Assembly: GCA_046563655.1 (NCBI GenBank) | Contig: CM102283.1 | Span: 5,146,001-5,210,000 of the forward strand | Source of the DNA: Yuukianura sp. NJ FZ-2021 | Taxonomy: Eukaryota | Direction: 5' to 3' | DNA: 64,000 nt | Shown: positions 942-35,154 of the stretch, one piece after another | Numbering within the stretch: position 1 is the stretch's first letter | Layout: every line of letters starts with the position of its first letter | Position numbers and translations under genes: made by a program | Notes under the pieces: model-generated | Databases searched by the model: none | What the model saw: the letters and a program-made list of their open reading frames with translations, nothing else | Told to the model about the DNA's origin: nothing

Positions 942-3900
942 TCAGCACACACTCTGGGTTCGGTGATAATTTCAGACGTCGAGGGTGCTGGTGTTTGGTA
1001 TTATATGCACTAAAACACTTTTCCATTTCACATCGTACAGTTTGCTGCTGAATACGTTGTATTTTGACTCAAGTTAAGACGTAGAAGATTCCTGCGTTAA
1101 CTCAAAAAAGGTCAGCTTGCTGGACTAAAAATAGTAACACGCAGAAGATGCTAAGAAATTGTTCTCAGCACACACTCTGGGAGTGGTGATAATTTCAGAC
1201 GTCGAGGGTGCTGGTATTTGGTATTTTATGCACTAAAACACTTTTCCATTTCACATCGTACAGTTTGCTGCTGAATACGTTGTATTTTGACTCAACATAA
1301 GACGTAGAAGATTCCTGCGTTAACTCAAAAAAGGTCAGTTTTCTGCACTAAAAATTGCAACACGCAGAAGATGCTAAGAAATTGTTCTCAGCACACACTC
1401 TGGGGGTGGTGATAATTTCAGACGTCGAGGGTGCTGGTATTTGGTATTATATGCACTAAAACACTTTTCCATTTCACATCGTACAGTTTGCTGCTGAATA
1501 CGTTGTATTTTGACTCAAGTTAAGACGTAGAAGATTCCTGCGTTAACTCGAAGGAGGTCAGTTTGCTGCACTAAAAATAGCAACACGCTGAAGATGCTAA
1601 GAAATTGTTCTCAGCACACACTCTGGGGGCAGTGATAATTTCAGACGTCGAGCGTGCTGGTGTTTGGTATTATATGCACTAAAACACTTTTCCATTTTAC
1701 ATCGTACAGTTTGCTGCTGAATACGTTGTATTTTGACTCAAGTTAAGACTTAGAAGATTCCTGCGTTAACTCAAAAAGGTCAGCTTGCTGCACTAAAAAT
1801 AGCAACACGCAGAAGATGCTAAGAAATTGTTCTCAGCACACACTCTGGGGGTAGTGATAATTTCAGACGTCGAGGGTGCTGGTGTTTGGTATTATATGCA
1901 CTAAAACACTTTTCCATTTTACATCGTACAGTTTGCTGCTGAATACGTTGTATTTTGACTCAAGTTAAGACTTAGAAGATTCCTGCGTTAACTCAAAAAA
2001 GGTCAGCTTGCTGCACTAAAAATAGCAACACGCAGAAGATGCTAAGAAATTGTTCTCAGCACACACTCTGGGAGTGGTGATAATTTCAGACGTCGAGGGT
2101 GCTGGTGTTTGGTATTATATGCACTAAAACACTTTTCCATTTCACATCGTACAGTTTGCTGCTGAATACGTTGTATTTTGACTCAAGTTAAGACGTAGAA
2201 GATTCCTGCGTTAACTCAAAAAAGGTCAGCTTGCTGGACTAAAAATAGCAACACGCAGAAGATGCTAAGAAATTGTTCTCAGCACACACTCTGGGAGTGG
2301 TGATAATTTCAGACGTCGAGGGTGCTGGTATTTGGTATTTTATGCACTAAAACACTTTTCCATTTCACATCGTACAGTTTGCTGCTGAATACGTTGTATT
2401 TTGACTCAACATAAGACGTAGAAGATTCCTGCGTTAACTCAAAAAGGTCAGCTTGCTGGACTAAAAATAGCAACACGCAGAAGATGCTAAGAAATTGTTC
2501 TCAGCACACACTCTGGGAGTGGTGATAATTTCAGACGTCGAGGGTGCTGGTATTTGGTATTTTATGCACTAAAACACTTTTCCATTTCACATCGTACAGT
2601 TTGCTGCTGAATACGTTGTATTTTGACTCAACATAAGACGTAGAAGATTCCTGCGTTAACTCAAAAAAGGTCAGTTTTCTGCACTAAAAATTGCAACACG
2701 CAGAAGATGCTAAGAAATTGTTCTCAGCACACACTCTGGGGGTGGTGATAATTTCAGACGTCGAGGGTGCTGGTATTTGGTATTATATGCACTAAAACAC
2801 TTTTCCATTTCACATCGTACAGTTTGCTGCTGAATACGTTGTATTTTGACTCAAGTTAAGACGTAGAAGATTCCTGCGTTAACTCGAAGGAGGTCAGTTT
2901 GCTGCACTAAAAATAGCAACACGCTGAAGATGCTAAGAAATTGTTCTCAGCACACACTCTGGGGGCAGTGATAATTTCAGACGTCGAGCGTGCTGGTGTT
3001 TGGTATTATATGCACTAAAACACTTTTCCATTTTACATCGTACAGTTTGCTGCTGAATACGTTGTATTTTGACTCAAGTTAAGACTTAGAAGATTCCTGC
3101 GTTAACTCAAAAAAGGTCAGCTTGCTGCACTAAAAATAGCAACACGCAGAAGATGCTAAGAAATTGTTCTCAGCACACACTCTGGGGGTAGTGATAATTT
3201 CAGACGTCGAGGGTGCTGGTGTTTGGTATTATATGCACTAAAACACTTTTCCATTTTACATCGTACAGTTTGCTGCTGAATACGTTGTATTTTGACTCAA
3301 GTTAAGACTTAGAAGATTCCTGCGTTAACTCAAAAAAGGTCAGCTTGCTGCACTAAAAATAGCAACACGCAGAAGATGCTAAGAAATTGTTCTCAGCACA
3401 CACTCTGGGAGTGGTGATAATTTCAGACGTCGAGGGTGCTGGTGTTTGGTATTATATGCACTAAAACACTTTTCCATTTCACATCGTACAGTTTGCTGCT
3501 GAATACGTTGTATTTTGACTCAAGTTAAGACATAGAAGATTCCTGCGTTAACTCAAAAAAGGTCAGCTTGCTGGACTAAAAATAGCAACACGCAGAAGAT
3601 GCTAAGAAATTGTTCTCAGCACACACTCTGGGAGTGGTGATAATTTCAGACGTCGAGGGTGCTGGTATTTGGTATTTTATGCACTAAAACACTTTTCCAT
3701 TTCACATCGTACAGTTTGCTGCTGAATACGTTGTATTTTGACTCAACATAAGACGTAGAAGATTCCTGCGTTAACTCAAAAAAGGTCAGTTTTCTGCACT
3801 AAAAATTGCAACACGCAGAAGATGCTAAGAAATTGTTCTCAGCACACACTCTGGGGGTGGTGATAATTTCAGACGTCGAGGGTGCTGGTATTTGGTATTA

Positions 3901-6900
3901 TATGCACTAAAACACTTTTCCATTTTACATCGTACAGTTTGCTGCTGAGTACGTTGTATTTTGACTCAAGTTAAGACTTAGAAGATTCCTGCGTTAACTC
4001 AAAGGAGGTCAGTTTGCTGCACTAAAAATAGCAACACGCTGAAGATGCTAAGAAATTGTTCTCAGCACACATTCTGGGTTCGGTGATAATTTCAGACGTC
4101 GAGGGTGGTGGTGTTTGGTATTATATGCACTAAAACACTTTTCCATTTCACATCGTACAGTTTGCTGCTGAATACGTTGTATTTTGACTCAACATAAGAC
4201 GTAGAAGATTCCTGCGTTAACTCAAAGGAGGTCAGTTTGCTGCACTAAAAATAGCAACACGCTGAAGATGCTAAGAAATTGTTCTCAGCACACACTCTGG
4301 GGGTAGTGATAATTTCAGACGTCGAGGGTGCTGGTATTTGGTATTTTATGCACTAAAACACTTTTCCATTTCACATCGTACAGTTTGCTGCTGAATACGT
4401 TGTATTTTGACTCAACATAAGACGTAGAAGATTCCTGCGTTAACTCAAAAAGGTCAGTTTTCTGCACTAAAAATTGCAACACGCAGAAGATGCTAAGAAA
4501 TTGTTCTCAGCACACACTCTGGGGGTGGTGATAATTTCAGACGTCGAGGGTGCTGGTATTTGGTATTATATGCACTAAAACACTTTTCCATTTCACATCG
4601 TACAGTTTGCTGCTGAATACGTTGTATTTTGACTCAAGTTAAGACGTAGAAGATTCCTGCGTTAACTCGAAGGAGGTCAGTTTGCTGCACTAAAAATAGC
4701 AACACGCTGAAGATGCTAAGAAATTGTTCTCAGCACACACTCTGGGGGCAGTGATAATTTCAGACGTCGAGCGTGCTGGTGTTTGGTATTATATGCACTA
4801 AAACACTTTTCCATTTTACATCGTACAGTTTGCTGCTGAATACGTTGTATTTTGACTCAAGTTAAGACTTAGAAGATTCCTGCGTTAACTCAAAAAAGGT
4901 CAGCTTGCTGCACTAAAAATAGCAACACGCAGAAGATGCTAAGAAATTGTTCTCAGCACACACTCTGGGGGTAGTGATAATTTCAGACGTCGAGGGTGCT
5001 GGTGTTTGGTATTATATGCACTAAAACACTTTTCCATTTTACATCGTACAGTTTGCTGCTGAATACGTTGTATTTTGACTCAAGTTAAGACTTAGAAGAT
5101 TCCTGCGTTAACTCAAAAAGGTCAGCTTGCTGCACTAAAAATAGCAACACGCAGAAGATGCTAAGAAATTGTTCTCAGCACACACTCTGGGAGTGGTGAT
5201 AATTTCAGACGTCGAGGGTGCTGGTGTTTGGTATTATATGCACTAAAACACTTTTCCATTTCACATCGTACAGTTTGCTGCTGAATACGTTGTATTTTGA
5301 CTCAAGTTAAGACGTAGAAGATTCCTGCGTTAACTCAAAAAAGGTCAGCTTGCTGGACTAAAAATAGCAACACGCAGAAGATGCTAAGAAATTGTTCTCA
5401 GCACACACTCTGGGAGTGGTGATAATTTCAGACGTCGAGGGTGCTGGTATTTGGTATTTTATGCACTAAAACACTTTTCCATTTCACATCGTACAGTTTG
5501 CTGCTGAATACGTTGTATTTTGACTCAACATAAGACGTAGAAGATTCCTGCGTTAACTCAAAAAAGGTCAGCTTGCTGGACTAAAAATAGCAACACGCAG
5601 AAGATGCTAAGAAATTGTTCTCAGCACACACTCTGGGAGTGGTGATAATTTCAGACGTCGAGGGTGCTGGTATTTGGTATTTTATGCACTAAAACACTTT
5701 TCCATTTCACATCGTACAGTTTGCTGCTGAATACGTTGTATTTTGACTCAACATAAGACGTAGAAGATTCCTGCGTTAACTCAAAAAAGGTCAGTTTTCT
5801 GCACTAAAAATTGCAACACGCAGAAGATGCTAAGAAATTGTTCTCAGCACACACTCTGGGGGTGGTGATAATTTCAGACGTCGAGGGTGCTGGTATTTGG
5901 TATTATATGCACTAAAACACTTTTCCATTTCACATCGTACAGTTTGCTGCTGAATACGTTGTATTTTGACTCAAGTTAAGACGTAGAAGATTCCTGCGTT
6001 AACTCGAAGGAGGTCAGTTTGCTGCACTAAAAATAGCAACACGCTGAAGATGCTAAGAAATTGTTCTCAGCACACACTCTGGGGGCAGTGATAATTTCAG
6101 ACGTCGAGCGTGCTGGTGTTTGGTATTATATGCACTAAAACACTTTTCCATTTTACATCGTACAGTTTGCTGCTGAATACGTTGTATTTTGACTCAAGTT
6201 AAGACTTAGAAGATTCCTGCGTTAACTCAAAAAAGGTCAGCTTGCTGCACTAAAAATAGCAACACGCAGAAGATGCTAAGAAATTGTTCTCAGCACACAC
6301 TCTGGGGGTAGTGATAATTTCAGACGTCGAGGGTGCTGGTGTTTGGTATTATATGCACTAAAACACTTTTCCATTTTACATCGTACAGTTTGCTGCTGAA
6401 TACGTTGTATTTTGACTCAAGTTAAGACTTAGAAGATTCCTGCGTTAACTCAAAAAAGGTCAGCTTGCTGGACTAAAAATAGCAACACGCAGAAGATGCT
6501 AAGAAATTGTTCTCAGCACACACTCTGGGAGTGGTGATAATTTCAGACGTCGAGGGTGCTGGTATTTGGTATTTTATGCACTAAAACACTTTTCCATTTC
6601 ACATCGTACAGTTTGCTGCTGAATACGTTGTATTTTGACTCAACATAAGACGTAGAAGATTCCTGCGTTAACTCAAAAAAGGTCAGTTTTCTGCACTAAA
6701 AATTGCAACACGCAGAAGATGCTAAGAAATTGTTCTCAGCACACACTCTGGGGTGGTGATAATTTCAGACGTCGAGGGTGCTGGTATTTGGTATTATATG
6801 CACTAAAACACTTTTCCATTTTACATCGTACAGTTTGCTGCTGAGTACGTTGTATTTTGACTCAAGTTAAGACTTAGAAGATTCCTGCGTTAACTCAAAG

Positions 6901-9900
6901 GAGGTCAGTTTGCTGCACTAAAAATAGCAACACGCTGAAGATGCTAAGAAATTGTTCTCAGCACACATTCTGGGTTCGGTGATAATTTCAGACGTCGAGG
7001 GTGCTGGTGTTTGGTATTATATGCACTAAAACACTTTTCCATTTCACATCGTACAGTTTGCTGCTGAATACGTTGTATTTTGACTCAACATAAGACGTAG
7101 AAGATTCCTGCGTTAACTCAAAGGAGGTCAGTTTGCTGCACTAAAAATAGCAACACGCTGAAGATGCTAAGAAATTGTTCTCAGCACACACTCTGGGTTC
7201 GGTGATAATTTCAGACGTCGAGGGTGCTGGTGTTTGGTGTTATATGCACTAAAACACTTTTCCATTTCACATCGTACAGTTTGCTGCTGAATACGTTGTA
7301 TTTTGACTCAAGTTAAGACGTAGAAGATTCCTGCGTTAACTCAAAGGAGGTCAGTTTGCTGCACTAAAAATAGCAACACGCTGAAGATGCTAAGAAATTG
7401 TTCTCAGCACACACTCTGGGGGCAGTGATAATTTCAGACGTCGAGCGTGCTGGTGTTTGGTATTATATGCACTAAAACACTTTTCCATTTTACATCGTAC
7501 AGTTTGCTGCTGAATACGTTGTATTTTGACTCAAGTTAAGACTTAGAAGATTCCTGCGTTAACTCAAAAAGGTCAGCTTGCTGCACTAAAAATAGCAACA
7601 CGCAGAAGATGCTAAGAAATTGTTCTCAGCACACACTCTGGGGGTAGTGATAATTTCAGACGTCGAGGGTGCTGGTGTTTGGTATTATATGCACTAAAAC
7701 ACTTTTCCATTTTACATCGTACAGTTTGCTGCTGAATACGTTGTATTTTGACTCAAGTTAAGACTTAGAAGATTCCTGCGTTAACTCAAAAAAGGTCAGC
7801 TTGCTGCACTAAAAATAGCAACACGCAGAAGATGCTAAGAAATTGTTCTCAGCACACACTCTGGGAGTGGTGATAATTTCAGAAGTCGAGGGTGCTGGTG
7901 TTTGGTATTATATGCACTAAAACACTTTTCCATTTCACATCGTACAGTTTGCTGCTGAATACGTTGTATTTTGACTCAAGTTAAGACTTAGAAGATTCCT
8001 GCGTTAACTCAAAGGAGGTCAGTTTGCTGCACCAAAAATAGCAACACGCTGAAGATGCTAAGAAATTGTTCTCAGCACACACTCTGGGGGTGGTGATAAT
8101 TTCAGACGTCGAGGGTGCTGGTATTTGGTATTATATGCACTAAAACACTTTTCCATTTCACATCGTACAGTTTGCTGCTGAATACGTTGTATTTTGACTC
8201 AAGTTAAGACGTAGAAGATTCCTGCGTTAACTCAAAGGAGGTCAGTTTGCTGCACTAAAAATAGCAACACGCTGAAGATGCTAAGAAATTGTTCTCAGCA
8301 CACACTCTGGGGGCAGTGATAATTTCAGACGTCGAGCGTGCTGGTGTTTGGTATTATATGCACTAAAACACTTTTCCATTTTACATCGTACAGTTTGCTG
8401 CTGAATACGTTGTATTTTGACTCAACATAAGACGTAGAAGATTCCTGCGTTAACTCAAAAAAGGTCAGTTTTCTGCACTAAAAATTGCAACACGCAGAAG
8501 ATGCTAAGAAATTGTTCTCAGCACACACTCTGGGGGTGGTGATAATTTCAGACGTCGAGGGTGCTGGTATTTGGTATTATATGCACTAAAACACTTTTCC
8601 ATTTCACATCGTACAGTTTGCTGCTGAATACGTTGTATTTTGACTCAACATAAGACGTAGAAGATTCCTGCGTTAACTCAAAGGAGGTCAGTTTGCTGCA
8701 CTAAAAATAGCAACACGCAGAAGATGCTAAGAAATTGTTCTCAGCACACACTCTGGGAGTGGTGATAATTTCAGACGTCGAGGGTGCTGGTATTTGGTAT
8801 TTTATGCACTAAAACACTTTTCCATTTCACATCGTACAGTTTGCTGCTGAATACGTTGTATTTTGACTCAAGTTAAGACGTAGAAGATTCCTGCGTTAAC
8901 TCAAAGGAGGTCAGTTTTCTGCACCAAAAATAGCAACACGCTGAAGATGCTAAGAAATTGTTCTCAGCACACACTCTGGGGGCAGTGATAATTTCAGACG
9001 TCGAGCGTGCTGGTGTTTGGTATTATATGCACTAAAACACTTTTCCATTTTACATCGTACAGTTTGCTGCTGAATACGTTGTATTTTGACTCAAGTTAAG
9101 ACTTAGAAGATTCCTGCGTTAACTCAAAAAGGTCAGCTTGCTGCACTAAAAATAGCAACACGCAGAAGATGCTAAGAAATTGTTCTCAGCACACACTCTG
9201 GGGGTAGTGATAATTTCAGACGTCGAGGGTGCTGGTGTTTGGTATTATATGCACTAAAACACTTTTCCATTTTACATCGTACAGTTTGCTGCTGAATACG
9301 TTGTATTTTGACTCAAGTTAAGACTTAGAAGATTCCTGCGTTAACTCAAAAAGGTCAGCTTGCTGCACTAAAAATAGCAACACGCAGAAGATGCTAAGAA
9401 ATTGTTCTCAGCACACACTCTGGGAGTGGTGATAATTTCAGACGTCGAGGGTGCTGGTGTTTGGTATTATATGCACTAAAACACTTTTCCATTTCACATC
9501 GTACAGTTTGCTGCTGAATACGTTGTATTTTGACTCAAGTTAAGACGTAGAAGATTCCTGCGTTAACTCAAAAAAGGTCAGCTTGCTGGACTAAAAATAG
9601 CAACACGCAGAAGATGCTAAGAAATTGTTCTCAGCACACACTCTGGGAGTGGTGATAATTTCAGACGTCGAGGGTGCTGGTATTTGGTATTTTATGCACT
9701 AAAACACTTTTCCATTTCACATCGTACAGTTTGCTGCTGAATACGTTGTATTTTGACTCAACATAAGACGTAGAAGATTCCTGCGTTAACTCAAAAAGGT
9801 CAGCTTGCTGGACTAAAAATAGCAACACGCAGAAGATGCTAAGAAATTGTTCTCAGCACACACTCTGGGAGTGGTGATAATTTCAGACGTCGAGGGTGCT

Positions 9901-12900
9901 GGTATTTGGTATTTTATGCACTAAAACACTTTTCCATTTCACATCGTACAGTTTGCTGCTGAATACGTTGTATTTTGACTCAACATAAGACGTAGAAGAT
10001 TCCTGCGTTAACTCAAAAAGGTCAGTTTTCTGCACTAAAAATTGCAACACGCAGAAGATGCTAAGAAATTGTTCTCAGCACACACTCTGGGGGTGGTGAT
10101 AATTTCAGACGTCGAGGGTGCTGGTATTTGGTATTATATGCACTAAAACACTTTTCCATTTTACATCGTACAGTTTGCTGCTGAATACGTTGTATTTTGA
10201 CTCAAGTTAAGACTTAGAAGATTCCTGCGTTAACTCAAAAAAGGTCAGCTTGCTGCACTAAAAATAGCAACACGCAGAAGATGCTAAGAAATTGTTCTCA
10301 GCACACACTCTGGGAGTGGTGATAATTTCAGACGTCGAGGGTGCTGGTGTTTGGTATTATATGCACTAAAACACTTTTCCATTTCACATCGTACAGTTTG
10401 CTGCTGAATACGTTGTATTTTGACTCAAGTTAAGACGTAGAAGATTCCTGCGTTAACTCAAAAAGGTCAGCTTGCTGGACTAAAAATAGCAACACGCAGA
10501 AGATGCTAAGAAATTGTTCTCAGCACACACTCTGGGAGTGGTGATAATTTCAGACGTCGAGGGTGCTGGTATTTGGTATTTTATGCACTAAAACACTTTT
10601 CCATTTCACATCGTACAGTTTGCTGCTGAATACGTTGTATTTTGACTCAACATAAGACGTAGAAGATTCCTGCGTTAACTCAAAAAAGGTCAGCTTGCTG
10701 GACTAAAAATAGCAACACGCAGAAGATGCTAAGAAATTGTTCTCAGCACACACTCTGGGAGTGGTGATAATTTCAGACGTCGAGGGTGCTGGTATTTGGT
10801 ATTTTATGCACTAAAACACTTTTCCATTTCACATCGTACAGTTTGCTGCTGAATACGTTGTATTTTGACTCAACATAAGACGTAGAAGATTCCTGCGTTA
10901 ACTCAAAAAAGGTCAGTTTTCTGCACTAAAAATTGCAACACGCAGAAGATGCTAAGAAATTGTTCTCAGCACACACTCTGGGGGTGGTGATAATTTCAGA
11001 CGTCGAGGGTGCTGGTATTTGGTATTATATGCACTAAAACACTTTTCCATTTCACATCGTACAGTTTGCTGCTGAATACGTTGTATTTTGACTCAAGTTA
11101 AGACGTAGAAGATTCCTGCGTTAACTCGAAGGAGGTCAGTTTGCTGCACTAAAAATAGCAACACGCTGAAGATGCTAAGAAATTGTTCTCAGCACACACT
11201 CTGGGGGCAGTGATAATTTCAGACGTCGAGCGTGCTGGTGTTTGGTATTATATGCACTAAAACACTTTTCCATTTTACATCGTACAGTTTGCTGCTGAAT
11301 ACGTTGTATTTTGACTCAAGTTAAGACTTAGAAGATTCCTGCGTTAACTCAAAAAAGGTCAGCTTGCTGCACTAAAAATAGCAACACGCAGAAGATGCTA
11401 AGAAATTGTTCTCAGCACACACTCTGGGGGTAGTGATAATTTCAGACGTCGAGGGTGCTGGTGTTTGGTATTATATGCACTAAAACACTTTTCAATTTTA
11501 CATCGTACAGTTTGCTGCTGAATACGTTGTATTTTGACTCAAGTTAAGACTTAGAAGATTCCTGCGTTAACTCAAAAAAGGTCAGCTTGCTGCACTAAAA
11601 ATAGCAACACGCAGAAGATGCTAAGAAATTGTTCTCAGCACACACTCTGGGAGTGGTGATAATTTCAGACGTCGAGGGTGCTGGTGTTTGGTATTATATG
11701 CACTAAAACACTTTTCCATTTCACATCGTACAGTTTGCTGCTGAATACGTTGTATTTTGACTCAAGTTAAGACGTAGAAGATTCCTGCGTTAACTCAAAA
11801 AAGGTCAGCTTGCTGGACTAAAAATAGCAACACGCAGAAGATGCTAAGAAATTGTTCTCAGCACACACTCTAGGAGTGGTGATAATTTCAGACGTCGAGG
11901 GTGCTGGTATTTGGTATTTTATGCACTAAAACACTTTTCCATTTCACATCGTACAGTTTGCTGCTGAATACGTTGTATTTTGACTCAACATAAGACGTAG
12001 AAGATTCCTGCGTTAACTCAAAAAAGGTCAGTTTTCTGCACTAAAAATTGCAACACGCAGAAGATGCTAAGAAATTGTTCTCAGCACACACTCTGGGGGT
12101 GGTGATAATTTCAGACGTCGAGGGTGCTGGTATTTGGTATTATATGCACTAAAACACTTTTCCATTTTACATCGTACAGTTTGCTGCTGAGTACGTTGTA
12201 TTTTGACTCAAGTTAAGACTTAGAAGATTCCTGCGTTAACTCAAAGGAGGTCAGTTTGCTGCACTAAAAATAGCAACACGCTGAAGATGCTAAGAAATTG
12301 TTCTCAGCACACATTCTGGGTTCGGTGATAATTTCAGACGTCGAGGGTGCTGGTGTTTGGTATTATATGCACTAAAACACTTTTCCATTTCACATCGTAC
12401 AGTTTGCTGCTGAATACGTTGTATTTTGACTCAACATAAGACGTAGAAGATTCCTGCGTTAACTCAAAGGAGGTCAGTTTGCTGCACTAAAAATAGCAAC
12501 ACGCTGAAGATGCTAAGAAATTGTTCTCAGCACACACTCTGGGTTCGGTGATAATTTCAGACGTCGAGGGTGCTGGTGTTTGGTGTTATATGCACTAAAA
12601 CACTTTTCCATTTCACATCGTACAGTTTGCTGCTGAATACGTTGTATTTTGACTCAAGTTAAGACGTAGAAGATTCCTGCGTTAACTCAAAGGAGGTCAG
12701 TTTGCTGCACTAAAAATAGCAACACGCTGAAGATGCTAAGAAATTGTTCTCAGCACACACTCTGGGGGCAGTGATAATTTCAGACGTCGAGCGTGCTGGT
12801 GTTTGGTATTATATGCACTAAAACACTTTTCCATTTTACATCGTACAGTTTGCTGCTGAATACGTTGTATTTTGACTCAAGTTAAGACTTAGAAGATTCC

Positions 12901-15900
12901 TGCGTTAACTCAAAAAAGGTCAGCTTGCTGCACTAAAAATAGCAACACGCAGAAGATGCTAAGAAATTGTTCTCAGCACACACTCTGGGGGTAGTGATAA
13001 TTTCAGACGTCGAGGGTGCTGGTGTTTGGTATTATATGCACTAAAACACTTTTCCATTTTACATCGTACAGTTTGCTGCTGAATACGTTGTATTTTGACT
13101 CAAGTTAAGACTTAGAAGATTCCTGCGTTAACTCAAAAAGGTCAGCTTGCTGCACTAAAAATAGCAACACGCAGAAGATGCTAAGAAATTGTTCTCAGCA
13201 CACACTCTGGGAGTGGTGATAATTTCAGAAGTCGAGGGTGCTGGTGTTTGGTATTATATGCACTAAAACACTTTTCCATTTCACATCGTACAGTTTGCTG
13301 CTGAATACGTTGTATTTTGACTCAAGTTAAGACTTAGAAGATTCCTGCGTTAACTCAAAGGAGGTCAGTTTGCTGCACCAAAAATAGCAACACGCTGAAG
13401 ATGCTAAGAAATTGTTCTCAGCACACACTCTGGGGGTGGTGATAATTTCAGACGTCGAGGGTGCTGGTATTTGGTATTATATGCACTAAAACACTTTTCC
13501 ATTTCACATCGTACAGTTTGCTGCTGAATACGTTGTATTTTGACTCAAGTTAAGACGTAGAAGATTCCTGCGTTAACTCAAAGGAGGTCAGTTTGCTGCA
13601 CTAAAAATAGCAACACGCTGAAGATGCTAAGAAATTGTTCTCAGCACACACTCTGGGGGCAGTGATAATTTCAGACGTCGAGCGTGCTGGTGTTTGGTAT
13701 TATATGCACTAAAACACTTTTCCATTTTACATCGTACAGTTTGCTGCTGAATACGTTGTATTTTGACTCAACATAAGACGTAGAAGATTCCTGCGTTAAC
13801 TCAAAAAAGGTCAGTTTTCTGCACTAAAAATTGCAACACGCAGAAGATGCTAAGAAATTGTTCTCAGCACACACTCTGGGGGTGGTGATAATTTCAGACG
13901 TCGAGGGTGCTGGTATTTGGTATTATATGCACTAAAACACTTTTCCATTTCACATCGTACAGTTTGCTGCTGAATACGTTGTATTTTGACTCAACATAAG
14001 ACGTAGAAGATTCCTGCGTTAACTCAAAGGAGGTCAGTTTGCTGCACTAAAAATAGCAACACGCAGAAGATGCTAAGAAATTGTTCTCAGCACACACTCT
14101 GGGAGTGGTGATAATTTCAGACGTCGAGGGTGCTGGTATTTGGTATTTTATGCACTAAAACACTTTTCCATTTCACATCGTACAGTTTGCTGCTGAATAC
14201 GTTGTATTTTGACTCAAGTTAAGACGTAGAAGATTCCTGCGTTAACTCAAAGGAGGTCAGTTTTCTGCACCAAAAATAGCAACACGCTGAAGATGCTAAG
14301 AAATTGTTCTCAGCACACACTCTGGGGGCAGTGATAATTTCAGACGTCGAGCGTGCTGGTGTTTGGTATTATATGCACTAAAACACTTTTCCATTTTACA
14401 TCGTACAGTTTGCTGCTGAATACGTTGTATTTTGACTCAAGTTAAGACTTAGAAGATTCCTGCGTTAACTCAAAAAGGTCAGCTTGCTGCACTAAAAATA
14501 GCAACACGCAGAAGATGCTAAGAAATTGTTCTCAGCACACACTCTGGGGGTAGTGATAATTTCAGACGTCGAGGGTGCTGGTGTTTGGTATTATATGCAC
14601 TAAAACACTTTTCCATTTTACATCGTACAGTTTGCTGCTGAATACGTTGTATTTTGACTCAAGTTAAGACTTAGAAGATTCCTGCGTTAACTCAAAAAAG
14701 GTCAGCTTGCTGCACTAAAAATAGCAACACGCAGAAGATGCTAAGAAATTGTTCTCAGCACACACTCTGGGAGTGGTGATAATTTCAGACGTCGAGGGTG
14801 CTGGTGTTTGGTATTATATGCACTAAAACACTTTTCCATTTCACATCGTACAGTTTGCTGCTGAATAGGTTGTATTTTGACTCAACATAAGACGTAGAAG
14901 ATTCCTGCGTTAACTCAAAAAAGGTCAGTTTTCTGCACTAAAAATTGCAACACGCAGAAGATGCTAAGAAATTGTTCTCAGCACACACTCTGGGGGCGGT
15001 GATAATTTCAGACGTCGAGGGTGCTGGTGTTTGGTATTATATGCACTAAAACACTTTTCCATTTTACATCGTACAGTTTGCTGCTGAATACGTTGTATTT
15101 TGACTCAAGTTAAGACGTAGAAGATTCCTGCGTTAACTCAAAAAGGTCGGCTTGCTGCACTAAAAATAGCAACACGCAGAAGATGCTAAGAAATTGTTCT
15201 CAGCACACACTCTGGGGGTGGTGATAATTTCAGACGTCGAGGGTGCTGGTGTTTGGTATTTTATGCACTAAAACACTTTTCCATTTCACATCGTACAGTT
15301 TGCTGCTGAATACGTTGTATTTTGACTCAAGTTAAGACTTAGAAGATTCCTGCGTTAACTCAAAAAAGGTCAGCTTGCTGGACTAAAAATAGCAACACGC
15401 AGAAGATGCTAAGAAATTGTTGTCAGCACACACTCTTGGAGTGGTGATAATTTCAGACGTCGAGGGTGCTGGTGTTTGGTATTATATGCACTAAAACACT
15501 TTTCCATTTTACATCGTACAGTTTGCTGCTGAATACGTTGTATTTTGACTCAAGTTAAGACGTAGAAGATTCCTGCGTTAACTCAAAAAAGGTCGGCTTG
15601 CTGCACTAAAAATAGCAACACGCAGAAGATGCTAAGAAATTGTTCTCAGCACACACTCTGGGGGTGGTGATAATTTCAGACGTCGAGGGTGCTGGTGTTT
15701 GGTATTTTATGCACTAAAACACTTTTCCATTTCACATCGTACAGTTTGCTGCTGAATACGTTGTATTTTGACTCAAGTTAAGACTTAGAAGATTCCTGCG
15801 TTAACTCAAAAAAGGTCAGCTTGCTGGACTAAAAATAGCAACACGCAGAAGATGCTAAGAAATTGTTGTCAGCACACACTCTGGGAGTGGTGATAATTTC

Positions 15901-18186
15901 AGACGTCGAGGGTGCTGGTGTTTGGTATTATATGCACTAAAACACTTTTCCATTTCACATCGTACAGTTTGCTGCTGAATACGTTGTATTTTGACTCAAG
16001 TTAAGACGTAGAAGATTCCTGCGTTAACTCAAAAAAGGTCAGCTTGCTGGACTAAAAATAGCAACACGCAGAAGATGCTAAGAAATTGTTCTCAGCACAC
16101 ACTCTGGGAGTGGTGATAATTTCCGACGTCGAGGGTGCTGGTATTTGGTATTTTATGCACTAAAACACTTTTCCATTTCACATCGTACAGTTTGCTGCTG
16201 AATACGTTGTATTTTGACTCAACATAAGACGTAGAAGATTCCTGCGTTAACTCAAAAAAGGTCAGTTTTCTGCACTAAAAATTGCAACACGCAGAAGATG
16301 CTAAGAAATTGTTCTCAGCACACACTCTGGGGGCGGTGATAATTTCAGACGTCGAGGGTGCTGGTGTTTGGTATTATATGCACTAAAACACTTTTCCATT
16401 TTACATCGTACAGTTTGCTGCTGAATACGTTGTATTTTGACTCAAGTTAAGACGTAGAAGATTCCTGCGTTAACTCAAAAAAGGTCGGCTTGCTGCACTA
16501 AAAATAGCAACACGCAGAAGATGCTAAGAAATTGTTCTCAGCACACACTCTGGGGGTGGTGATAATTTCAGACGTCGAGGGTGCTGGTGTTTGGTATTTT
16601 ATGCACTAAAACACTTTTCCATTTCACATCGTACAGTTTGCTGCTGAATACGTTGTATTTTGACTCAAGTTAAGACTTAGAAGATTCCTGCGTTAACTCA
16701 AAAAAGGTCAGCTTGCTGGACTAAAAATAGCAACACGCAGAAGATGCTAAGAAATTGTTGTCAGCACACACTCTGGGAGTGGTGATAATTTCAGACGTCG
16801 AGGGTGCTGGTGTTTGGTATTATATGCACTAAAACACTTTTCCATTTTACATCGTACAGTTTGCTGCTGAATACGTTGTATTTTGACTCAACATAAGACG
16901 TAGAAGATTCCTGCGTTAACTCATAAAAGGTCAGTTTGCTGCACTAGAAATTGCAACACGCAGCAGATGCTAAGAAATTGTTCTCAGCACACACTCTGGG
17001 GGTAGTGATAATTTCAGACGTCGAGGGTGCTGGTATTTGGTATTATATGCACTAAAACACTTTTCCATTTTACATTGTACAGTTTGCTGCTGAATACGTT
17101 GTATTTTGACTCAAGTTAAGACTTAGAAGATTCCTGCGTTAACTCAAAGGAGGTCGGCTTGCTGCACTAAAAATAGCAACACGCAGAAGATGCTAAGAAA
17201 TTGTTCTCAGCACACACTCTGGGGGTGGTGATAATTTCAGACGTCGAGGGTGCTGGTGTTTGGTATTATATGCACTAAAACACTTTTCCATTTTACATCG
17301 TACAGTTTGCTGCTGAATACGTTGTATTTTGACTCAAGTTAAGACGTAGAAGATTCCTGCGTTAACTCAAAAAAGGTCGGCTTGCTGCACTAAAAATAGC
17401 AACACGCAGAAGATGCTAAGAAATTGTTCTCAGCACACACTCTGGGGGTGGTGATAATTTCAGACGTCGAGGGTGCTGGTGTTTGGTATTTTATGCACTA
17501 AAACACTTTTCCATTTCACATCGTACAGTTTGCTGCTGAATACGTTGTATTTTGACTCAAGTTAAGACTTAGAAGATTCCTGCGTTAACTCAAAAAAGGT
17601 CAGCTTGCTGGACTAAAAATAGCAACACGCAGAAGATGCTAAGAAATTGTTGTCAGCACACACTCTGGGAGTGGTGATAATTTCAGACGTCGAGGGTGCT
17701 GGTGTTTGGTATTATATGCACTAAAACACTTTTCCATTTTACATCGTACAGTTTGCTGCTGAATACGTTGTATTTTGACTCAACATAAGACGTAGAAGAT
17801 TCCTGCGTTAACTCAAAAAAGGTCAGTTTGCTGCACTAGAAATTGCAACACGCAGCAGATGCTAAGAAATTGTTCTCAGCACACACTCTGGGGGTAGTGA
17901 TAATTTCAGACGTCGAGGGTGCTGGTATTTGGTATTATATGCACTAAAACACTTTTCCATTTTACATTGTACAGTTTGCTGCTGAATACGTTGTATTTTG
18001 ACTCAAGTTAAGACTTAGAAGATTCCTGCGTTAACTCAAAGGAGGTCGGCTTGCTGCACTAAAAATAGCAACACGCAGAAGATGCTAAGAAATTGTTCTC
18101 AGCACACACTCTGGGGGTGGTGATAATTTCAGACGTCGAGGGTGCTGGTGTTTGGTATTATATGCACTAAAACACTTTTCCATTTC
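942..18186. repeat. Satellite array 2, 223-bp monomer, ~77 copies
   Basis: TCAGCACACACTCTGGG at 942, 1165 and onward every 222-223 bp; monomers differ at a small set of recurrent variant sites. Confidence 0.98.
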
Positions 18187-18545
18187 AGTAGGTACAATGT
18201 CTGCACAATACGGAAAACTGTCAATCAAATCATCAACTAATATCGATTATCTGTCAGCCCCCCCTCTCATTAATAGTCCCCCTAGGAGTATATAGAGGGC
18301 CCCTTCTGGAGCCCCTCTTTCCCCTTAGTGTTTAGTATAGTGCACTACCCTTATCCCTACCGACGTCAGCCCCCTGAATAACAGAACACCCCTCCCATCA
18401 TCAATACAACGAATCAATTAATTAATCAATTAACAACCAATCATCAAATTATTTACTTGCCAATCAGATTTTTATTAGTCACAAATAATGGGGGGGGGGG
18501 GAGTGGGCGTGTGTAGGTTAATTAAACTTAATTAACATAATTAAC
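18187..18545 (+). repeat. Left TIR (~355 bp) of the Maverick-like element
   Basis: Reverse complement of ~20046-20397 with few differences; contains a G-run and repeated AATTAA palindromes at the inner end. Confidence 0.93.
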
Positions 18546-18607
18546 ACTTAGGTGCTTAATTAAGTTGGGGAGTTTACACCCACCCGGAATTAACTTCACT
18601 ACCCCCA

Positions 18608-19153
18608 ATGGACCCCCTCCCCCGACTAAAACGCTACCCATCACCTCATACCGCCAAGTTCGCTCAGTTACGTTCCAGATTCCAAACAAATCACACCGAA
18701 ATGGCCGGCATTAACCCGTTGTATCTCGACTATGTTATTACTACTTCTCCTCCCCCGGAAAAGTCAGAAGACAAGCCCAGTTATGTACGGGGTAAAAACG
18801 GGAAACTTTCTTGCCCGTACTGCCCAAAACAATTTGCTAGGAAGGACACTGTAAAACGGCATGTTACCAACTTGCATTCACTGCAAGTTGGAGGAAGAAA
18901 AACGGAAAATGCGTCCACCGAGGAAATGGAAGAAAGTTCGCCTCACGGCAGTCCAAGCGGCCCGACGTCTGAAGATGAAGAAACTTCAGTCGATGAAAGT
19001 GAAAGTGGGTCACGTTTTGAATTGGAGGACGACGCTGAGATTACAGTGGAGACAATTAAGCTCATTCTACACTTGCTTAGGAATGCTCAAGCTGGGACTC
19101 AAAGAGTATCAAAAAAACTTTTATATCAAATAATAATGGAGGCTGATCCTTAA
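18608..19153 (+). CDS. Small C2H2 zinc-finger protein with acidic Ser/Glu tract (likely start at ATG 18701, 150 aa)
   Basis: CPYCPKQFARKDTVKRHVTNLH matches C-x2-C-x3-F-x8-H-x4-H; uninterrupted ORF just inside the left TIR; Inr-like TCAGTT at 18664 upstream of the second ATG. Confidence 0.75.
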   Translation: MDPLPRLKRYPSPHTAKFAQLRSRFQTNHTEMAGINPLYLDYVITTSPPPEKSEDKPSYVRGKNGKLSCPYCPKQFARKDTVKRHVTNLHSLQVGGRKTENASTEEMEESSPHGSPSGPTSEDEETSVDESESGSRFELEDDAEITVETIKLILHLLRNAQAGTQRVSKKLLYQIIMEADP

Positions 19154-19667
19154 CTGTGTAAGCATTGGTACACTGTCCGGCAAAAAAAAATCATAACTCT
19201 ACTCCAGCGCAAAAGAACATCGGAAAGGTAATGAGAATGAAACAGAGTTTAGCGGTTAAGAAGTTTCCCCGAGTGCTGTTATACCCATTTTTTTAGTAAC
19301 AAGTTTCGCGGTTTTTTTTTTGTGATATAGTTGGGAGGCTACCTCTGCTGCTTTCGCCTATGCTACTTTTTAAGGCCTTAACGTGAAGGGGAGAAAATCC
19401 AAGGGCCCCCAGTTGATGGAACTGCAGTAAATGAGAAGGCCCTTGCACCATACTTTTCCACAATCGCATCTCCATTACGCTGCATAATCTACACAATGTC
19501 CTGATGTCAAGTCGAAACAACCCTCAACCACAATCGCGGGCAGTCAGTTTGCACACAACCTTTTGTCAAAGCAAACTTTAAGCCATAAACGTAAAAGGGA
19601 GAGAATCCAACACTTTCCCCGGTAAACGGAACCGCAAGGAAAACAAAGCCCACACTATCGTGCGGAC

Positions 19668-19740
19668 CACTCACCCCGCTCCACTGCACTGCACTCCGCT
19701 CCACCCCACCTCACCCCGCCTGACTCCACTCCACTCCGCC
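19668..19740. repeat. Degenerate 5-bp microsatellite (CTCCA/CTGCA/CTCCG)
   Basis: ccactcaccccgctccactgcactgcactccgctccaccccacctcaccccgcctgactccactccactccgcc. Confidence 0.6.
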
Positions 19741-20045
19741 GCAGCAGAAATTTGAAAAACAAAAAGAGTGAAAGAAAACGTTTATGCATCCAAGGGCTCC
19801 ATACTACATGGAATGCAGGGAAATACATCAACACCAATGTCCAATATCGATACAGCGTCAATCCTCAACACTCACCGGAAGTCGGTTTACACACAACCCT
19901 CCCACCGGCTAAAATTAACACGCTCGACTTAATTTCTACAACCTTCATAGTTAAATTCCCCGCCCCCTGCAAAATTGACGACTTTACACTGGCCAATAGG
20001 ACTTCATAAAAATTTGATTGACAAGTGAATAATTATGTTAATTAA

Positions 20046-20397
20046 GTTAATTAGGTTAATTAAGTTTAATTAACCTACACCCGCCCCCCCCCCCCATTAT
20101 TTGTGACTAATAAAAATCTGATTGGCAAGTAAATAATTTGATGGTTGGTTGTTAATTGATTAATTAATTGATTCGTTGTATTGATGATGGGAGGGGTGTT
20201 CTGTTATTCAGGGGGCTGACGTCGGTAGGGATAAGGGTAGGCACTATACTAAACACTAAGGGGAAAGAGGGGCTCCAGAAGGGGCCCTCTATATACTCCT
20301 AGGGGGACTATTAATGAGAGGGGGGGCTGACAGATAATCGATATTAGTTGATGATTTGATTGACAGTTTTCCGTATTGTGCAGACATTGTACCTACT
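20046..20397 (-). repeat. Right TIR of the Maverick-like element
   Basis: Reverse complement of 18187-18545. Confidence 0.93.
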
Positions 20398-21578
20398 CAT
20401 TTCACATCGTACAGTTTGCTGCTGAATACGTTGTATTTTGACTCAACATAAGACGTAGAAGATTCCTGCGTTAACTCAAAGGAGGTCAGTTTGCTGCACT
20501 AAAAATAGCAACACGCTGAAGATGCTAAGAAATTGTTCTCAGCACACACTCTGGGTTCGGTGATAATTTCAGACGTCGAGGGTGCTGGTGTTTGGTATTA
20601 TATGCACTAAAACACTTTTCCATGTCACATCGTACAGTTTGCTGCTGAATACGTTGTATTTTGACTCAAGTTAAGACGTAGAAGATTCCTGCGTTAACTT
20701 AAAGGAGGTCAGTTTGCTGCACTAAAAATAGCAACACGCTGAAGATGCTAAGAAATTGTTCTCAGCACGCACTCTGGGGGCAGTGATAATTTCAGACGTC
20801 GAGGGTGCTGGTGTTTGGTATTATATGCACTAAAACACTTTTCCATTTTACATCGTACAGTTTGCTGCTGAATACGTTGTATTTTGACTCAAGTTAAGAC
20901 TTAGAAGATTCCTGCGTTAACTCAAAAAAGGTCAGCTTGCTGCACTAAAAATAGCAACACGCAGAAGATGCTAAGAAATTGTTCTCAGCACACACTCTGG
21001 GGGTGGTGACAATTTCAGACGTCGAGGGTGCTGGTGTTTGGTATTATATGCACTAAAACACTTTTCCATTTTACATCGTACAGTTTTCTGCTGAATACGT
21101 TGTATTTTGACTCAAGTTAAGACGTAGAAGATTTCTGCGTTAAATCAAAGAAGGCAGTTTGCTGCACTAAAAACAGCAACACGCAGAAGATGCTAAGAAA
21201 TTGTTCTCAGCACACTGGGGGTGGTGATAATTTCAGACGTCGAGGGTGCTGGTGTTTGGTATTATATGCACTAACACACTTTTCCATTTCACATCGTACA
21301 GTTTGCTGCTGAATACGTTGTATTTTGACTCAAGTTAAGACGTAGAAGATTCCTGCGTTAACTCAAAGGAGGTCAGTTTGCTGCACTAAAAATAGCAACA
21401 CGCAGAAGATGCTAAGAAATTATTCTCAGCACACACTCTGGGGGCGGTGATAATTTCAGACGTCGAGGGTGCTGGTGTATTGTATTATATGCACTAAAAC
21501 ACTTTTCCATTTATATCGTACAGTTTGCTGCTGAATACGTTGTATTTTGACTCAAGTTAAGACGTAGAAGATTCCTGC
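20398..21578. repeat. Terminal ~5.3 monomers of satellite array 2, more diverged
   Basis: Same 223-bp unit with more private substitutions and small deletions; ends abruptly after AAGATTCCTGC. Confidence 0.95.
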
Positions 21579-24055: not shown

Positions 24056-25111
24056 GTAAAGTTTACGTTTTAGTCTTCTGGAGACGCACGTCTACGACGT
24101 GCTGAAGAAGACTATTGATACGACTTTGTCCGTCTGTCCGTCCGTCACACTTTTTAGGACCCTTTCCACTGAAACATAAGCCCCATCGCAGTCGGGGGGT
24201 TTTGTGTGGCTCAAGTGTTTTCATTAAGTCTACATTGCACTCAAAGTGTCATATTAACAACGTATAAATGGGCGGCCACTTTACGCACCCGCAGTAAATT
24301 CGTTTTCCGAAAACGTTTTGGTTTCGATTACACTCAAAATATATTCAAACAACGTAGTTTTGACCCTGTCATTTTCTGACAGTATGTTTACTTACATTGT
24401 TAATTTAAGTCTAGTTAGACGGTAAAAAATCCGGCTTAAATGTTTAATATGTGAATAGTGAATGAAAGGTGTCAAATTTGCATTTACCAGAATTTTTTTT
24501 ATAATTTTGAATTTAAATAAGCGATACTCGAGGCCTCACCCTTAGCACTTAATTTTGTGATAATGCACACTAATGACTGCCAAAAATACATAAACATCGA
24601 ATTGTGCATTTACTTCAACCGATTTTGATTCTTCAGAAACGATATTCGACCTCTTTTCCTATACGTTCAGTTTTGTGCATGTTGCGCATTTATTGCACAT
24701 GAATGTAAAATTGTGCAGTTATTTTGACGCTGGGTAATGGACGTTGTCATGACAACACTGGTAATGAATTATGTGCATGTTGTTTAGTAAGTTGTTTTAT
24801 AGCGACGTGTCTAAGAAATTTTAGTCTAAAAATTTTTTATGATTTTGAATTTAAACAAACGATATTCTACCCCTCACCTTCGATCTTCAATTTGGTTTCT
24901 TTTTTGTTTTTGACAATTCTTTGCCTGTATCATTCAAGTGTTTAACTTATAGTTTAATTTACAGTTCCCAGTTATATTTTAAGTAGTACATAATTTCAAT
25001 CTTTGGTACAAGTTTGTAAAGCTTCATCGGGTAAGAAAATGATTTCTAATCTTATTTGTTACTATCACGCTATACCAAATTAGGTGTTACTTCATTATTT
25101 CAGATATTATC

Positions 25112-28100
25112 ATGTCAACGCGACAACAACGAGCCAGAGCGAGGCATCGACGGCAGTTCCTACGAGCAATCGAATCTAGCAGAGAAGAAGAACAGGGTAG
25201 AAATAGCATTGCTCACTGTGTTGTCCGGCAGGATGAAGAGAACCGTCGTGCAGAACAAGAACGAAATACTGAGGATCATCGTCAACTCCGGGAGAATGAA
25301 GAGTATCGACAACTGGAACAACAACGGGATACTGCATCTCATCGTCAACTACGTGAAAATGATGACTACAGAGAAATGGAACAAAAACGGAATACTGCAG
25401 CTCATCGTCAACTACGTGTTCATATTCATGATGAGTCCTGGGAGTCGGTGGTTGAGGTCTTCGAAGAAAAATGCAGGGAAGGCCCGTCACATATCTGTAT
25501 CTCCTGTGGTGGACTTTGGTTCAAGAAATCTATCAAGCAGCTGCGGCGATCCGACTGTACTCGATTGGATGACAACTTTCTGAACGCTGTTTTCTCTACC
25601 CAACTGGAAGGAAACTTTTGCATTACTTGCCACGCTGCTGTGAAATCTGGTCGTAACTCTCGACTGGATTTAACCAATGGTCTCCAGTTTCCGGCAGTAC
25701 CACCTGAAGTAGCGTCTTTGACACGGCTGGAAGCCAGATTAGTGTCGCCGTACCATGTCTTTCAAGCGATTTGGGCTGTACAAGGACCACAAGGTACATT
25801 TTGATTGTTCAAAAATTAGCGCAGAATTTGATTCGTTTGGCTAATAACAATATTTGTAGGTCAATTGAAGACGAAGGGACGGATTGTGAATGTTCCAGTT
25901 TCCGTGACAAATATTGTTCAAAGTCTGCCTCGCCTCCCTTCAGACGATTCAGTCCTGCATCTTCGGCTGGCCCGTCAGATGCATGTTGAGAAGAATTATA
26001 CTTCCGGAAACATCCGTCCAGAAAAAGTTCTTCAAGCCGCTGAAGTTCTCTGCCAATCTCAGTTGTACACCCAACATGGTGTGAAAGTCTCCAATTCCTG
26101 GCTGGCGGATTCTCGTCGAGAATTGACTTCAGTGGACTCTAGCTTGGAGAGTCGGCTCGAAAACTCTCTTATTCTCTCGAGCGAAGTACATTCGGGAGGA
26201 GAATTTGAAGAATCCACCACAAATGAAACTCTGCTGACCGATAGCGCTGGGCTTCGGATGGCCCCTGCAGAGGGAAATCGCCCTGTTTCTGTTCTCCTGG
26301 ACGAAGACTCAGTATTTCTAGCTTTTCCTCAGTTGTTCGCCGGACACAAGATGAACCCCATTTTTGATGGGAAGAAAATCTCAAGAGCCGATATGTTTAA
26401 ATCGTTTGCTAGGAACAAAGACCGAAGAGCGGCAGAGTCAGTGGATTTTCTTTTGTATATGGCAAAGACTCTGGAAATTGCAAGAATTACTAGTAATCGT
26501 TCGATTCATTTGAGGAAAAGACGAGTCAATGGTGAGCTTATAATTCCAACCGCTGGACAAGTCTTGCACCAGACTTACGTCGATGGCCTCATCCGGGACG
26601 ATAACGCTTATAAAGTTCTGGCGGGAATTAGAAACGCAGGAACTCACTGGAAGAACGAGGGTAACAAAGTTCGGGCAATGATTCGTACCTTTGGCATCGC
26701 TACTTTGTTTGTAACAATCAGCGCGGCAGAGATGAAATGGAACGAGTTACTTGTTTTACTGAAGAAAATTCTGGATGGCGTTGAAATCTCTGAAGAGGAA
26801 GCCGAGCAGTTACCGCATTCTGAAAAGGCGCTTCTCATTCAACGCGACCCGATCACTTGCGCACGTTATTTTGACAACCGTTACTCCGCGCTGAAGGCAA
26901 CTTACCGCTCTCGAAATGGTCCTTTCGGTTGCCACGAAATTCGCCACTTCTACGAAAGGGTGTAGTTCCAGCATCGCGGAAGCCCGCATGTGCATGCGAT
27001 GTTTTGGCTGTCGGACGCTCCAATTTTCAATCCAGAGAATGAATCGCATGACGACGTTACTGCTTTTATTGACAGTATGATAACTTGCAGTACGAACTAC
27101 CCTTCGGAAGATCCAATCAATGGGCTACTATCGCTCCAGACTCATCGGCATACACATACTTGCTACAAAAGGACGCACAAGGGAGTGAAATGTCGCTTCG
27201 GTATTCCTTTTTTCCCAATGGACAAAACTCGTATTCTTTTGCCATTGGAAGATCCGTCAGACTTCAAAGACCTCAAGCTACAGCATAAAGCTATTCGAGA
27301 ATTCTTAGAAAATCGGATGCTTGACCGGGGAATGTCGTTTGAGGAGTTTCTGGAAGCAATTTCTTGCGACCTTCCTTTGTATCTACGAGTAATTCAATCG
27401 AAACTGAAGAAGCCCAACGTGTATCTGAAGAGAAGCCCTTGTGAAATTTATATCAACGCCTACAATGAGAAGATATTACGGCTTCAGAAATCTAATATGG
27501 ACATTCAATTTATCCTTGATCCCTACGCATGTTGTAGCTACATCGTGGACTATATCAATAAAACCAATCGAGGGCTTTCCGAACTGTTGCGGAACGTGGT
27601 GGAGGAAGTGAGGAAAGGTAATGCCCCCCTGAAAGACAGTCTACAAGCTATTGGAGCGGCTCATAACTTGAACAGCGAACTTTCGGCCCAGGAAGCAGCC
27701 TACAATGTTTTGCAAATGCCAATGAGCTATTCTTCGGAAAAATGTATCTTTGTTCAGACTGCTCCTGCCAGCCATCGTACAAGAATGTTGAAGTCTCAGG
27801 CGGATCTATCCCAGTTGGACCCCGATGACCAGAACATTTTCTTTACTAGTCCAACTGATCACTATGCTCAACGACCACTTGCATTGGAATCACTGAATCT
27901 TGCTCAATTCTCTGCATGGTATGAATATTCCAAAACTATGAGAAAACAGGTAGTCGAACCACACGAAGAAGACGACGCATCTCCGAAAGAAGAAACGGCA
28001 ACCGAAGTTTACAAGTTGAGAGACGGTTCTGGATACGTACGAAAGAGGAAATTTGCAAAAGTCATTCGCTTCGTGCGTTACAACAAAGAAAAAGATCCAG

Positions 28101-35128: not shown

Positions 35129-35154
35129 AAGGAATGATGAAAAACTTTGAATAG

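Follow-up and report, generated by a model that had tools for sequence, protein, structure and literature searches.

A 2.2-kb insertion with Maverick/Polinton-like ends and a zinc-finger gene in a 223-bp satellite array

Background

Inside a long array of 223-bp satellite repeats, the window analysed here (the whole stretch of DNA under study, 64 kb in length) holds a segment of 2.2 kb that is bounded by inverted repeats and carries a gene for a zinc-finger protein. The locus raises the question of what kind of mobile element, if any, this segment represents, and whether it moved as the short unit now seen or is the stump of a much larger insertion. The original prediction, made from the sequence, was that of a miniature non-autonomous relative of Mavericks (Polintons). 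We examined the boundaries, ends, gene content and protein relatives of the segment, and compared it with published groups of elements sharing its target-site duplication (TSD) length.

Results

A 2,211-bp unit in a satellite monomer

The insertion measures 2,211 bp and lies at positions 18187–20397 of the 64-kb window, with exact boundaries. Its flanks are composed as follows:

942..18186, no strand: 223-bp satellite array of the left flank, the host target (TRF: period 223, 77.4 copies, 96% matches)
18181..18186, no strand: left TSD copy, CATTTC (sequence, flanks, in-silico excision)
20398..20403, no strand: right TSD copy, CATTTC (sequence, flanks, in-silico excision)
20404..21578, no strand: 223-bp satellite array of the right flank, continuing in register (TRF, spacing, excision)

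As delimited by TRF, the satellite tract ran from 942 to 18187 and from 20398 to 21578, with 5.3 copies in the latter part. The monomer spacing across the element was 2440 bp, equal to 223 + 2211 + 6, and in-silico removal of positions 18187–20403 (the element plus one CATTTC) brought the 223-bp satellite back into register. The monomer rebuilt in this way was identical to its neighbours at 210/223 and 212/223 positions, while the neighbours matched each other at 211/223. CATTTC was present at the insertion-site position in 47 of the 82 satellite monomers, and GC content was 0.44 in the insertion versus 0.40 in the array. Since excision restores the satellite and the spacing fits, the whole 2.2 kb arrived as a single piece with a 6-bp target duplication; the insertion is that of one unit into one 223-bp satellite monomer. 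The base 3' of the right TSD is A, as is the first base of the element, which formally allows a 7-bp TSD with the ends of the element shifted by one base, if less parsimoniously than one of 6 bp.

Long, nearly identical terminal inverted repeats

Both ends of the insertion are formed by long terminal inverted repeats (TIRs):

18187..18545, plus strand: left TIR, 359 bp, beginning AGTAGG (alignment, repeat search)
20046..20397, minus strand: right TIR, 352 bp, ending CCTACT (alignment, repeat search)

The two arms were identical at 349 of 359 aligned positions (three mismatches and seven gap columns), and their outer 314 bp differed only twice, by one 1-bp indel and one substitution. In the repeat search they appeared as two 157-nt blocks with 100% and 99% complementarity. 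The element starts with AGTAGGTACAATG and ends with CATTGTACCTACT, the exact reverse complement of the start, giving termini of the form 5'-AGTAGG...CCTACT-3' in which AG is repeated at positions 1–2 and 4–5. In the window this 27-nt terminus was found exactly once on each strand, with zero occurrences expected (100 shuffles), and it had no match among prokaryotic genome contigs.

The structure anticipated in the original prediction, namely near-identical TIRs of about 355 bp, AG...CT ends starting with AGTAG, an exact 6-bp TSD and a position within 223-bp satellite DNA, was borne out in every part: the arms measure 359 and 352 bp, the AGTAGG...CCTACT ends can be read at both termini, and CATTTC lies on both sides of a unit whose excision restores the array. 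With a perfect TSD and near-identical TIRs a recent insertion is plausible, although in a protein-primed replicon the likeness of the two TIRs is not necessarily a clock.

The left TIR contains TTAATTAA-rich tracts and a G12 run, together with two CCAAT motifs facing inward (18437 and 18460) and a TATATAG at 18289. These CCAAT motifs and AT-rich, TATA-like stretches of the inner TIR lie upstream of the zinc-finger open reading frame (ORF) and could serve as its promoter. An additional partial copy of the CCAAT-bearing motif was found just inside the right TIR, at 20006–20063.

An intact gene for a single-finger protein

Just inside the left TIR lies the longest of the seven ATG-initiated ORFs of at least 40 aa in the element, with the following features:

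18608..19153, plus strand: intact intronless ORF, stop codon included (ORF list, alignment with relatives)
18809..18877, plus strand: single C2H2 zinc finger, C-X2-C-X12-H-X4-H (Pfam zf-C2H2, structural model, PDB profile matches)
19046..19141, plus strand: C-terminal two-helix motif, ETIKLILHLLRNA...KKLLYQII (alignment with relatives; model helices at residues 116–130 and 138–147)

The ORF encodes 181 aa from 18608 or 150 aa from an ATG at 18701, and spans 197 aa from stop to stop; similarity to relatives starts at the second of these ATG codons. The expectation of one clear, intact ORF was upheld, and its C2H2 pattern scored below the Pfam threshold: the zf-C2H2 match covered residues 68–90 with E values of 3e-4 to 3.8e-4 and 21.2–21.4 bits, under the gathering cut-off of 25.2 bits. 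A profile of the family gave strong matches to canonical C2H2 fingers in the PDB, confined to the finger region. In the AlphaFold model the finger adopted a beta-beta-alpha fold (pLDDT 77–86), while the protein as a whole reached a mean pLDDT of 60.9 and a pTM of 0.26. The finger is followed by a long acidic linker, modelled as disordered, and then by two C-terminal helices; the two-helix motif is kept in relatives, again after an acidic disordered linker. Proteins seldom bind DNA sequence-specifically through one C2H2 finger alone, and a protein-binding or regulatory role might suit the acidic linker and the pair of helices just as well. That the finger acts on the TIRs, on a helper or on the satellite would be pure speculation.

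Distant relatives of the zinc-finger protein

A word-indexed search with the single protein returned 47 candidates, none at E ≤ 0.01. An exhaustive search gave 362 matches at E ≤ 0.001, and nearly all of the 150 listed were multi-finger proteins aligned over the finger only. Among those listed, the matches along a single stretch (P0108, P0084 and P0101) led to the true family. The 239-aa protein P0108 was 30% identical over query residues 35–181 (pairwise E value of 7e-15), in an alignment that takes in two motifs, INP..Y on the N-terminal side and the helix motif 'KLILH.L.N...G.Q' on the C-terminal side, and relative to P0108 the window ORF is complete at both ends. A profile search retrieved nine proteins from 5,001 candidates, adding P0084, P0101, P0151–P0153 and P0154 as relatives. 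The last of these is a protein of the springtail Folsomia candida, annotated as 'Retrotransposon-like protein 1'; the unnamed relatives come from contigs of 0.7–1.3 kb.

All eight family members (8/8) matched Pfam zf-C2H2, with a best E value of 1.9e-6. The helical motif is present in two copies in most relatives and in one copy in the window protein, and tblastn of seven relatives against the element and the window revealed no second C-terminal motif and no extra exon. Taken on sequence comparison, the ORF and its protein family are real, and the relatives are distant, at about 30% identity. An ESM Atlas search returned generic small zinc-finger clusters only, with recognition below a useful level. 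Five bacterial loci (L001–L005) matched the window protein in a search of prokaryotic genome contigs; these matches covered the finger only and were set aside as irrelevant.

The remaining interior, further copies and helper genes

Between the gene and the right TIR there is a further segment:

19154..20045, no strand: 892-bp interior without a credible gene (ORF list, Pfam, repeat searches)

It contains a low-complexity CCACT tract (19667–19737) and two weak direct-repeat pairs; repeat analysis ruled out a clean tandem array. Interior ORFs gave no Pfam match (10 scanned of the 26 listed), and PHROGs returned zinc-finger matches only, besides two weak ones to families of unknown function from a minus-strand ORF of 67 aa. 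No Rfam family was found in 17900–20700 and no tRNA in a scan of the whole window. Across the ORFs, Pfam and PHROGs, the element yielded no polymerase, integrase, ATPase, protease or capsid gene and no trace of one. As the zinc-finger protein is the only credible ORF, the element can at most be a non-autonomous Maverick member, and as it holds no transposase, polymerase or capsid gene, its classification is drawn entirely from its ends.

A BLASTN comparison of the element with the remainder of the 64-kb window found no second copy and no TIR fragment, and the interior at 18546–20045 was unique. A scan of the region from 21.5 to 41 kb covered every ORF of 100 aa or more (29/29) and found no pPolB, integrase or capsid gene and no helper; the domains seen in these ORFs were Helitron, RPA-like and serine-carboxypeptidase only. 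The Peptidase_S10 exon of the window had a single match, 38% to a Papilio xuthus protein.

Comparison with Mavericks and other groups with 6-bp TSDs

In the published description of intact vertebrate Mavericks, TSDs are 6 bp, TIRs range from 46 to 1,447 bp (mean 402 bp) and end motifs take the form 5'-(AGT)2//(ACT)2-3' or (AG)3//(CT)3 (PMC8097293). AGTAG is the start of the commonest of these motifs, and the repeats at the ends have been proposed to permit jumping-back in protein-primed replication; the genes of Mavericks lack introns, and accessory genes adjoin the TIRs (PMC8097293). A 6-bp TSD is also given as characteristic of Polintons elsewhere (PMC10045372), and a Polinton of Anolis is reported with a 6-bp TSD and a TIR of 584 bp (PMC3014272).

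Set against this description of autonomous vertebrate Mavericks, the element shares a perfect 6-bp TSD, a TIR length within range and AGTAG...CTACT ends, as well as an intronless gene adjoining the TIR, at the accessory-gene location (PMC8097293). The proposal that the terminal signature is of Maverick/Polinton type accordingly fits the published TSD, TIR and end-motif values (PMC8097293, PMC10045372). At the level of single bases, AGTAGG/CCTACT matches (AGT)2 at five of six positions, the comparison set being vertebrate. The sixth base is T in the vertebrate motif versus G in the element, whose host is, as far as can be told, not a vertebrate.

Among the features by which Mavericks are recognised, the element thus shows TSD length, TIR length and reiterated AG...CT ends, and departs from them in size (2,211 bp versus about 12–25 kb) and in having no gene for a capsid, packaging ATPase or adenain-like protease. 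TSDs of the common cut-and-paste superfamilies measure 2, 3, 4, 5, 8 or 9 bp, and none of these superfamilies is known to begin with AG. Autonomous vertebrate Mavericks, as described, measure 12.7–24.6 kb, versus 2.2 kb here, and carry pPolB, integrase, ATPase, protease and capsid genes, none of which has left any trace in the element (PMC8097293).

In the literature located, two other groups come near the element in TSD length. IS3EU/GingerRoot elements, with an integrase-related transposase, share the 6-bp TSDs, and their reported termini are TA..TA or occasionally TG..CA; they were rejected on the AG..CT termini seen here (PMC10045372). Dada elements, as described, make TSDs of 6–7 bp, have no TIRs and insert at fixed sites in multicopy small-RNA (snRNA/tRNA) genes (PMC3706591). 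They share with the element a TSD in the 6-bp range and insertion into a multicopy repeated target, and were rejected on the TIRs of about 355 bp, the location in satellite DNA and the failure to find a tRNA or Rfam target (PMC3706591). On the evidence of its ends, the element is probably of Maverick-type origin.

Discussion

A short element that may have been mobilised in trans

We tentatively favour, with a confidence falling a little short of even, a very short non-autonomous transposon of Maverick/Polinton type that entered the satellite monomer as a 2.2-kb unit, using enzymes supplied in trans. In such an event a retroviral-like (rve) integrase, encoded by a full-length Maverick at another genomic site, would recognise the two identical AGTAG... 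termini and join them to target DNA cut with a 6-bp stagger, repair of which would leave the CATTTC duplication. The TIRs of 352–359 bp would be the sole cis-acting machinery still in place, for integrase recognition and probably also as an origin of protein-primed replication, whose 'jumping-back' start the reiterated AG-T-AG end would permit. The polymerase, integrase, ATPase, protease and capsid genes would have been lost, and one intronless gene of accessory type retained inside the left TIR, encoding one finger, an acidic linker and two helices. We infer the superfamily, the trans-acting source of the enzymes, the part that the ends would play in replication and the promoter activity of the inner TIR.

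Several observations weigh against a short element mobilised in trans. The assignment is taken from end structure, with an end motif matching at five of six positions and a vertebrate comparison set; the 64 kb hold a single copy, with no helper gene among the window ORFs scanned. The Anolis study, in its account of Polintons, found no non-autonomous ones (PMC3014272), and defective vertebrate copies are described as decayed full-length elements (PMC8097293). Going by these two accounts, short mobilised derivatives are not the common fate of such elements.

Alternative origins of the insertion

The 2.2 kb may instead be what remains of a full-length Maverick insertion at this site that later lost some 10–20 kb of its interior in place and never moved in the short form, the zinc-finger gene and the 892-bp spacer being the two subterminal 'accessory' regions of the parent. 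We regard this as somewhat unlikely, though it would leave the same end signature as a short element. Most intact vertebrate Mavericks are described with accessory regions of diverse ORFs between TIRs and core, which is where the ORF lies (PMC8097293), and the right TIR faces a gene-free interior, as if the neighbouring genes had been deleted. The presence of a single copy in the window, along with the published decay of most Maverick loci (96% of vertebrate loci are given as defective; PMC8097293), favours deletion in place. A random deletion in a gene-dense parent would, however, usually be expected to leave a truncated core or accessory gene, and none was detected in 19154–20045; the retained ORF, moreover, is complete at both ends relative to P0108. 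Neither point is strong. As no fragment of a known protein family was found in the 892-bp remainder (10 of the 26 listed interior ORFs scanned), a distinct non-autonomous element accounts for it better than random loss from the interior of a gene-dense parent, and the lack of a truncated gene together with the complete ORF mildly favours the short-element reading.

It is also conceivable, but unlikely, that the insertion is a non-autonomous element of some other, possibly undescribed, DDE superfamily and that its likeness to Mavericks is coincidental. Long-TIR non-autonomous elements occur in several superfamilies, no homology to Maverick proteins was found anywhere in the element, a TSD and two to five terminal bases are by themselves a weak basis for classification, and the 7-bp TSD reading would suit such an origin. 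Against this, IS3EU/GingerRoot and Dada, as described, fail on their defining features (PMC10045372, PMC3706591), and the five terminal bases AGTAG are the start of the commonest motif reported for vertebrate Mavericks (PMC8097293). Scarcely credible is an origin with no transposon involved, whether through misassembly or through an inverted duplication that arose locally in the satellite. Satellite arrays do assemble poorly, and there is no independent copy for comparison, but the insertion has exact boundaries, the 6 bp that are duplicated are native to the satellite, excision restores register at normal monomer identity, and the interior is unique, with a conserved protein-coding gene and a GC content of 0.44 versus 0.40 for the array.

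Related small elements

Non-autonomous Polintons are already catalogued in Repbase, among them Polinton-1N1_DR and Polinton-N1A_NV, named in PMC9341505 and PMC11296320. The element, compared with them by name and description only, shares the concept of superfamily members unable to move alone; Polinton-N1A_NV is described as encoding a major capsid protein, whereas the window element encodes no virus-like protein. On short, non-autonomous or internally deleted Polintons the literature located offered these catalogue names only, and no comparable mini-element was described in it (Repbase itself lay outside the search). Because non-autonomous Polintons are already catalogued, the element can add no more to them than a new member that is unusually small and carries a gene, and this is probably what it is.

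Small C2H2 finger or ribbon proteins are reported as recurrent accessory genes of virophages, transpovirons and some polintons (PMC3671162, PMC11788076), and for this reason a finger gene would not be out of place in a Maverick derivative. Transpovirons and virophages are, as portrayed there, likewise small TIR-bounded DNA elements, belonging to a polinton-related supergroup and reliant on a larger virus, and small proteins with a C2H2 zinc finger or a zinc ribbon are encoded by several of them (PMC3671162, PMC11788076), a likeness drawn from published description. They differ in being about 7 kb or larger, in having several genes including a helicase, and in their association with giant viruses of protists (PMC3671162, PMC11788076).

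By analogy with these systems, the element might be a minimal 'satellite' of a Maverick or polintovirus, although we consider this quite improbable. It would then be a 2.2-kb mini-replicon with helper-recognised ends and a gene of its own, whose zinc-finger/acidic protein might aid competition for the helper polymerase or integrase, or steer the element into the 223-bp satellite as a safe haven.

Significance

The movement of Mavericks is itself still inferred, and the literature words it as 'proposed' or 'expected'. Should the 2.2-kb form prove to be single-copy, it would be an ordinary decayed insertion, of use only in marking that Mavericks were recently active in the genome. If it is multi-copy, with each copy flanked by its own TSD, the minimal cis requirements for Maverick mobilisation would come to about 350 bp of TIR per side, and the element would provide a natural mini-substrate for testing trans-mobilisation by an integrase and a protein-primed polymerase. 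Multiple copies would also mean that a small regulatory gene of host-like character can travel and spread with a Maverick derivative. Were the 'satellite' reading true, the element and its helper would be to metazoans what transpovirons or virophages and the viruses that help them are to protists.

Sequence motifs in the TIRs

Over their outermost 314 bp, the TIRs of the 2,211-bp Maverick/Polinton-like insertion showed a single base substitution, CCAAT in the left copy (18437-18441) versus CCAAC in the right one (~20141-20145), and an extra partial copy of the CAATCA-containing motif neighbouring the CCAAT site was located just inside the right TIR (20006-20063). Both TIRs also carried the 11-mer CATCATCAATA (18396-18406, plus strand; 20179-20189, minus strand), identical to the sequence with which the inverted terminal repeats of human adenovirus open. 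The placement of the 11-mer ~210 nt inward from each end of the element argues against a terminal-origin role, and the adenovirus-like 11-mer may be a chance occurrence.

Minus-strand ORF in the non-coding interior

In the non-coding interior of the insertion, beyond its zinc-finger gene, one short reading frame gave protein-family matches:

19510-19710, minus strand: stop-to-stop ORF of 67 aa

This ORF matched two function-unassigned families of the PHROG protein collection (E = 2.1e-5 and 8.2e-5), while a Pfam scan of it returned no family. As the ORF overlaps a low-complexity CCACT tract, the PHROG matches are probably compositional.

Satellites and other coding sequences in the window

Three mutually unrelated satellite families were present in the 64-kb window, of which only ~19 kb was non-satellite:

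1-841: satellite of 127/256 bp
942-21578: satellite of 223 bp, the host array of the insertion
40979-64000: satellite with a 182-bp unit in higher-order repeats of 364-388 bp (~120 copies)

Two further coding loci were identified:

25043-30738 (plus strand) and 31188-32111 (minus strand): Helitron-type element
35380-36291, plus strand: serine carboxypeptidase, two exons (Peptidase_S10, E = 6e-16 and 7e-28)

The Helitron-type element was flanked by two different satellite arrays, and its coding region, split over several reading frames, comprised the Pfam domains DUF6570, Helitron_like_N and PIF1 helicase, followed by a 288-aa ORF with zero matches in the Pfam scan. Directly downstream of the coding region, on the opposite strand, lay an ORF with an RPA-like OB-fold (REPA_OB_2, E = 9.5e-9). 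A 63-bp tandem unit (2.6 copies, 25253-25418) within the N-terminal Helitron ORF codes for a reiterated 'RQLRENE.YR' peptide.

Immediately upstream of the carboxypeptidase exons, an 87-bp unit was tandemly repeated (2.0 copies, 98% matches, 34953-35130). The sole database relative found for the exons themselves was a 'venom serine carboxypeptidase' of Papilio xuthus, with 38% identity.
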